Sequence record: OR845965.1
Source: a phage
Reading direction: 5' to 3' (one strand)
Length of the DNA: 1,410 nt
In this document: piece after piece, positions 1 through 141 of the stretch
How positions within the stretch are numbered: position 1 is the first letter of the stretch
Layout: each line of letters starts with the position of its first letter
Position numbers and translations under genes: made by a program
Notes under the pieces: generated by a model
What the model saw: only the letters and a program-made list of their open reading frames with translations
Database searches by the model: none
What the model was told of the DNA's origin: nothing

Positions 1-141
1 GTACGGCTGTTGCAGGTACTGCGCGCTGGTTTCGCCCAGCAGGTTTCCCCACTCGTCATACTCCCCCTGCCACGCCGTTTCCCCTTCCGGGCTGATGAGC
101 GCCAGCGGCAGTCCCCGGTGGTCGCAGTGGTAAAGATGAAG
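1..141 (-). other. N-terminal part of the RHS repeat-associated core domain (truncated by window edge)
   Basis: Translation [47 protein letters not shown] matches the conserved start of the RHS repeat-associated core domain (TIGR03696-type) as I recall it. The remainder, including the DPxGL motif, would lie beyond coordinate 1. Confidence 0.75.

Follow-up and report, generated by a model that had tools for sequence, protein, structure and literature searches.

Does the left edge of this DNA open onto the toxin tip of an Rhs protein, and might an undescribed pair of toxin and immunity genes lie just beyond it? This question was raised by the first-pass annotation of the window, i.e., of the whole stretch of 1,410 nt that was analysed, in which the RHS core domain was seen to begin at the low-coordinate end, with the cleavage motif and the variable C-terminal tip expected in the adjacent sequence.

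The window as a piece of an Rhs core gene

Translation of the window's minus strand yields one open frame of 470 codons which contains no stop and runs off both ends. Over its entire length (aa 1-470) this frame matches the NCBIfam profile NF041261 "RHS element core protein" co-linearly and without interruption, covering profile positions 725-1203 of 1261 (E = 1.6e-302), whereby the score amounts to 1006.8 bits as compared to a curated cut-off of 2000 bits, with only 38% of the profile lying inside the window, and full-length relatives reach 2554-2601 bits. The window's share of the GC-rich core, which is expected to form the YD-repeat beta-shell, likewise amounts to approximately 38%. Pfam PF05593 (RHS/YD repeat) is matched in two stretches (E = 3.5e-15), the best-scoring one of which locates to window 1300-1401 on the minus strand (aa 4-37), and the YD-repeat profile TIGR01643 is matched with E = 1.2e-8. 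The GC content of the window was found to be 63.5% and to be even along its length (61-67% in each tenth), values which compare to 62.6-64.8% in the cores of relatives, while the E. coli genome as a whole possesses a GC content of about 51% and is hence less GC-rich than the Rhs core. Considered separately, segments of the window are 99-100% identical to annotated E. coli 'RHS element core protein' genes, and matches to the Rhs core were obtained in 3727 of 5426 complete E. coli genomes (69%), with a median of three copies per carrying genome. Taking this together, the window (1-1410, minus strand) is read, with a probability of about 0.93, as an internal segment of one of the classical Rhs ('RHS element core protein') genes of Escherichia coli, the stop-free translation and the NF041261 match placing it in the YD-repeat shell, and no feature inside the window contradicts the Rhs identification. 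The Rhs architecture, its autoproteolysis and the logic of toxin and immunity are already established, and the window is an ordinary, already known core fragment whose biological weight is small, as Rhs core genes are common in E. coli and the principles behind them have been worked out.

Opposite the Rhs frame, the plus strand holds antisense ORFs of 95, 139 and 178 aa, located at window 10-297, 155-574 and 340-876 respectively. Neither these ORFs nor a further ORF of 53 aa on the minus strand gave a Pfam match at E up to 1, and a scan of the window for promoter-like and terminator-like sites returned none. Having neither a family match nor a promoter-like site, the antisense ORFs were rejected as genes and are regarded as chance products of GC-rich coding sequence.

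Structural work has described YD-repeat shells of the kind considered here for Photorhabdus laumondii Rhs1 (7Q97) as well as for Pseudomonas aeruginosa Tse5 (8CP6) and for Tse15 (8UXT), and the window shows sequence similarity to the solved Rhs shells 8cp6 (Tse5), 7q97 (Rhs1), 8qja and both 8uxt and 8uy4 (Tse15). The similarity to these type VI secretion system (T6SS) effectors is distant only (E = 4e-25 to 1e-12); they possess other N-terminal loading domains and their catalytic motifs have no counterpart inside the window, but it is from them that the model of plug, aspartyl protease and toxin release comes. The same YD-repeat cocoon is formed by the TcC subunits of Tc toxins and by the YD shells of teneurins, whereby TcC also shares the DPxGL aspartyl autoprotease (PMC8636562). 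Both, however, belong to other delivery systems, have a much lower sequence similarity and are not the family of this gene; in relatives, the profile PF25023 (TEN_YD-shell) is matched weakly.

The low-coordinate end and its continuation in relatives

The first-pass annotation placed the C-terminal end of the Rhs core at the left edge of the window, on the minus strand and within positions 1-141, and the domain matches agree with this placement. The Pfam 'RHS protein' segment PF03527, i.e., the last YD repeat before the C-terminal plug, was found at window 34-138 on the minus strand (aa 425-459; E = 2.6e-14, 53.2 bits as compared to a gathering score of 27.9) and thus covers nearly the interval named. 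TIGR01643 assigns a YD repeat to aa 429-464, the final YD repeat corresponds to nt 61-141, and aa 421-465 align to positions 1181-1225 of PDB entry 7q97_A, which is the last repeat leading into the plug. As the last 60 aa (window 1-180) alone match NF041261 with E = 1e-29 at profile positions 1144-1203, the Rhs match of the window end is not a chance match.

The further claim that the RHS core domain starts within window 1-141 holds for a part of this interval. In two full-length relatives, TIGR03696 (RHS repeat-associated core domain, 76 positions) was found to cover residues 1176-1253, beginning with the Y of YDEWGN. This tyrosine corresponds to window aa 451 and therefore only nt 1-60 of the window (minus strand), i.e., the first 20 of the 76 positions, belong to the domain, whereas nt 61-141 belong to the final YD repeat. 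This assignment was mapped via the full-length relatives; the TIGR03696 profile itself gave no match to the window, and for the last 60 aa none was obtained even when E values up to 10 were admitted. The remaining 58 residues of the TIGR03696 region, both DPxGL motifs included, lie beyond the window, the frame of which leaves the edge after ...SAQYLQQPY with neither terminal DPxGL motif inside, precisely as had been stated.

Close to this edge, codon 465 (window 16-18, minus strand) reads TAC (Tyr), while CAC (His) or CAA (Gln) is found in all seven aligned relatives. Nucleotide 18 is the sole base of the window without a match in these seven sequences and locates 18 nt from the contig edge; the difference could reflect either a substitution private to this sequence or an error at the contig end.

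Beyond the window edge, relatives continue from ...QQPY with RLPGQQYDEESGLYYNR.RYYDPLQGRYITQDPIGL-17 aa-DPLGL, after which unrelated tips follow; given motif by motif, their continuation is RLPGQQYDEESGLYYNR.RYYDPLQGRYITQ-DPIGL-(17 residues)-DPLGL. The first DPxGL-type motif of the relatives ends 36 codons past the edge, and the demarcating PxxxxDPxGL usually ends 58 codons past it, a distance which equals the 58 NF041261 profile positions missing from the window. Among the 120 best database matches, the end of the second motif was found 55-59 codons past the edge in 119, in good agreement with the 'roughly 50 or more codons' anticipated from the sequence, and 27 of those 119 relatives possess a variant first motif (DPIDI or DPIGP). 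The tips that follow the motif comprise 55-245 aa, mostly 142-160 aa, and fall into 9 tip families among the 119 relatives. In four relative loci the tips were determined to have a GC content of 36-41%, and the genes next to them one of 28-37%. Downstream of the tips, genes for dsORF-h1, TPR, ankyrin and Sel1 proteins and an 86-aa ORF were identified, and every annotated relative locus examined possesses a variable, GC-poor tip followed by a small downstream gene (presumed immunity), which is the order that had been expected after DPxGL and is known here from the relatives. Upstream, Hcp and VgrG genes precede rhs in relatives, which also possess the N-terminal DUF6531 region. The architectural claim of the first-pass annotation is hence borne out in every part that could be tested; for this DNA, whose continuation is read by homology only, it may be considered partly supported.

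A mechanistic frame for this architecture is provided by the literature. Two DPLGL motifs, 17 residues apart, were described, the second of which holds the catalytic Asp, and cleavage was reported to free the toxin; the C-terminal plug was identified as an aspartyl protease embedded in the shell, with the toxin located inside the shell (PMC8636562). The motif PxxxxDPxGL was moreover found to demarcate the variable Rhs-CT, with the product of the downstream gene giving cognate immunity (PMC3150448). By analogy, the RHS repeat-associated core domain of the present protein (from nt 60) would fold back as a plug closing the shell, and this plug would be an aspartyl autoprotease whose two DPxGL motifs are separated by 17 residues. 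A cut after the second motif (PxxxxDPxGL) would subsequently free the variable C-terminal toxin held in the shell. The whole protein would ride on a VgrG spike and be delivered by the type VI secretion system, and immunity would be provided by a small gene just downstream. According to the relatives, the window would end 58 codons before the second motif, which would place the toxin tip and the immunity gene approximately 175 nt past coordinate 1. We infer the shell fold, the role of the plug as protease, autocleavage, VgrG/T6SS delivery and downstream immunity from the literature and from the relatives.

The position of the window edge also marks a change at the DNA level. In the 174 nt leading up to the edge, the yafV-type copies are 95-99% identical to one another, as compared to 75-90% in the 174 nt that follow, and right after this position the GC content of relatives (loci L002, L003, L004 and L007) drops from approximately 64% to 47-56%. 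The drop in GC content and identity thus starts approximately 58 codons before PxxxxDPxGL, and since it starts at the window-edge position the exchangeable DNA cassette seems to extend beyond the tip alone and to take in the greater part of the RHS-associated core domain.

Mosaic composition of the window and its origin

Searches with the whole window returned relatives of limited closeness. The best full-window DNA match among the 5426 complete E. coli genomes has 93.3% identity, the best match in the plasmid collection 89.6% and the best protein match 90%. The exact 470-aa protein is absent from a collection of 15 billion proteins, and an exact 50-mer and 36-mer of the left edge as well as a 50-mer spanning the ybbP/yafV junction are absent from the genome, metagenome and viral contigs scanned. 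With no close database match to the window in its entirety, the exact gene would have to be either unsampled or an assembly product. A non-E. coli origin, which had been suspected from the values of 93.3% (DNA) and 90% (protein), was rejected, as the segments of the window are 98.5-100% identical to E. coli copies.

Segment by segment, the window was found to be a mosaic. In O157:H7 strains, the ybbP-locus Rhs gene shares 99.1% identity with positions 760-1410; positions 1-870 agree at 98.3-98.6% with the Rhs gene that O157:H7 and O55:H7 strains carry at the yafV locus, and positions 1-200 are 98.5% identical to yafV-locus copies in many strains. Window 859-1410 (minus strand) is identical, with 0 mismatches in 552 nt, to the O157:H7 ybbP-locus Rhs gene (WP_000014801.1, strain TR01), the short FGNNAYELT variant included; over window 1-450, in contrast, this gene diverges strongly, with up to 22 mismatches per 30 nt, and its tail reads QLNEENPHHLHQPY, unlike the tail of the window. 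Window 1-858 (minus strand) is a mosaic of the yafV-locus type, in which the O157:H7 yafV-locus main gene (WP_000509129.1, TR01) alternates with orphan 1 and orphan 2 and to which a 54-nt piece of the ybbP type is added; the main copy together with the two orphans explains this part almost base for base. The yafV-locus gene carries an ankyrin-repeat downstream gene and two orphan cassettes and has the same reading frame and ...GETSAQ(H)LQQPY tail as the window, but is approximately 10-13% divergent from window 859-1410.

The short FGNNAYELT form, which is common to the window and the O157:H7 ybbP-locus copy, corresponds to a 15-nt (5-codon) deletion at approximately window 1066-1075 (aa 112-116) as compared to the rhsE-locus copy of GPEC1222 (FGSMAGSNAAYKLT). 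This GPEC1222 gene, the best full-length DNA match, is a pseudogene with a TAG at positions 6949-6951 of its locus (L001), where the window has TGG (Trp) at approximately 475-477 and an intact frame.

The mosaic was rebuilt by dynamic programming with the four Rhs copies of one genome, that of O157:H7 strain TR01, as donors, namely the ybbP-locus gene, the yafV-locus main gene, orphan 1 and orphan 2. Six switches, at approximately 858/859, 699/700, 674/675, 620/621, 252/253 and 103/104 of the window, were sufficient, with nt 18 as the one unmatched base. As controls, the GPEC1222 gene required 51 switches and 45 mismatches and the EC1515 gene 28 switches and 24 mismatches with the same four donors.

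Two readings of this mosaic have to be weighed against each other. For the one, that the window is a collapsed or bubble-popped contig in which several Rhs paralogs from an O157:H7-like E. coli are mixed and which does not represent one gene, we see an even chance. Six switches between the copies of a single genome, as opposed to the 28-51 switches and 24-45 mismatches that real genes of other strains need, argue for it, as does the absence of the mosaic from all 5426 complete E. coli genomes, in which the full window is matched at 93.3% at most and the junction region (window 700-1000) at 97.0% at best. The exact protein being absent from 15 billion proteins points in the same direction, the window is short (1410 nt), and its edge falls where the copies start to diverge in identity and GC content, which is a typical break site for an assembler. 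Nucleotide 18, however, is supplied by none of the donors, and these donors are the paralogs of one O157 genome only; the frame is moreover open across every switch point, which is expected under either reading as the copies are co-linear.

The same mosaic pattern fits gene conversion, and hence the window may tentatively be read, at odds somewhat short of even, as a genuine recombinant Rhs gene which arose, in an unsampled E. coli lineage near O157:H7/O55:H7, through gene conversion between a ybbP-locus core and the yafV-locus copies. The frame is intact across the window, the private exchange of His/Gln for Tyr at codon 465 is expected of a diverged real allele, and Rhs loci hold tandem orphan copies with common core sequence which were proposed to recombine (PMC2935791; PMC3150448). 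A genuine gene would nonetheless have to be reconciled with its absence from the complete genomes, many O157:H7 among them, with the absence of the recombinant protein from the protein collection and with donor tracts as short as 25 and 54 nt. In addition, E. coli clade I rhs genes were reported to cluster by locus, with inter-locus core recombination being infrequent, if it occurs at all (Jackson et al., PMC2935791). Between a collapsed contig and a real gene-conversion product, we see little difference in likelihood. The former concerns the integrity of the sequence and is compatible with the Rhs identification; if the contig is collapsed, 'beyond coordinate 1' denotes several loci and no single genomic place. 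Short contigs of multi-copy Rhs cores can be paralog patchworks, a caution that applies to windows such as this one.

It is unlikely that the window derives from a dissociated Rhs C-terminal cassette, a silent 'orphan', and not from an expressed full-length rhs gene. Many of the sequences that come closest to the last 200-850 nt are indeed N-terminally truncated orphans (H10407, A29, ws5-3 and the O157 orphans 1 and 2), and the gene start does not lie inside the window. On the other hand, the window carries 470 core codons, the orphans examined begin later in its frame (orphan 1 at codon 185, orphan 2 at codon 103, H10407 at approximately codon 330) and a full-length gene matches its upstream 552 nt without a single difference. 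The copy of DSM 103246 was found to be frameshifted, and as some relatives are pseudogenes or orphans, the functionality of the window gene cannot be assumed.

Tips joined to near-identical core tails

At least four unrelated tips, each with its own downstream gene, are carried by copies that diverge from the window by approximately 1.5-2.5% over their last 200 nt. The tip KFHVNGDPSDF..., followed by dsORF-h1, was identified in H10407, EJN001, H6 and ws5-3, and the tip ANVTPQMIFG..., followed by a TPR protein, in EC1515 and, by annotation, in DSM 103246. The tip TQCDSEGCNN..., followed by an ankyrin-repeat protein, is carried by the O157:H7 yafV-locus main copy, by the database proteins P0002-P0013 and by others, and the tip ALDLNYYSPSD..., followed by a Sel1-repeat protein, by O157 orphan 1. 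The idea of predicting the tip from the tail of the core was given up, near-identical tails being followed by at least four different tips. The likeliest continuation, at about even odds, would be the O157:H7 yafV-locus tip (TQCDSEGCNN..., 157 aa) together with the ankyrin-repeat gene, which is favoured because the last 103 nt of the window match that copy with 1 mismatch. As the core does not predict the tip, a search for new toxins would need reads or long-read data and not the contig.

Each of these tips is already known from sequenced E. coli genomes, which renders an undescribed toxin/immunity pair, as envisaged by the first-pass annotation, unlikely. That a pair absent from every database lies past coordinate 1 is accordingly given very little weight, even though Rhs tips are highly polymorphic, as documented by the 9 families among 119 relatives and by one core tail being joined to at least four different tips, and even though tips of relatives can be without a recognised family: those of three relatives (L002 5375-5857, L003 5375-6004 and L007 4811-5284) gave no Pfam, NCBIfam or PDB sequence match. 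Against this stands that every window segment is 99-100% identical to common E. coli copies, the tips of which have been sequenced many times. Slightly more improbable still is the combination of both, namely a genuine, unsampled Rhs gene formed by ybbP/yafV gene conversion that is followed, past coordinate 1, by a tip and an immunity gene present in no sequenced genome. A literature search for the O157 pair of Rhs and ankyrin-repeat protein found nothing; the tips of the closest relatives, sequenced in many genomes yet not assigned by sequence to any family or structure, pose a modest question which lies outside the window.

Two observations on individual tips are added. The KFHVNGDPSDF... 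tip possesses an HExxH-like motif in some copies, reading GLGHEFAHA in the GPEC1222 locus (L001) and GLGHGFAHA in H10407. In strain A29 (L011 1846-5079), the same core tail is found in an orphan Rhs cassette the tip of which carries an IS3, between the core and dsORF-h1, and this cassette hence provides a real case of the disruption which the first-pass annotation had named as speaking against its own claim.
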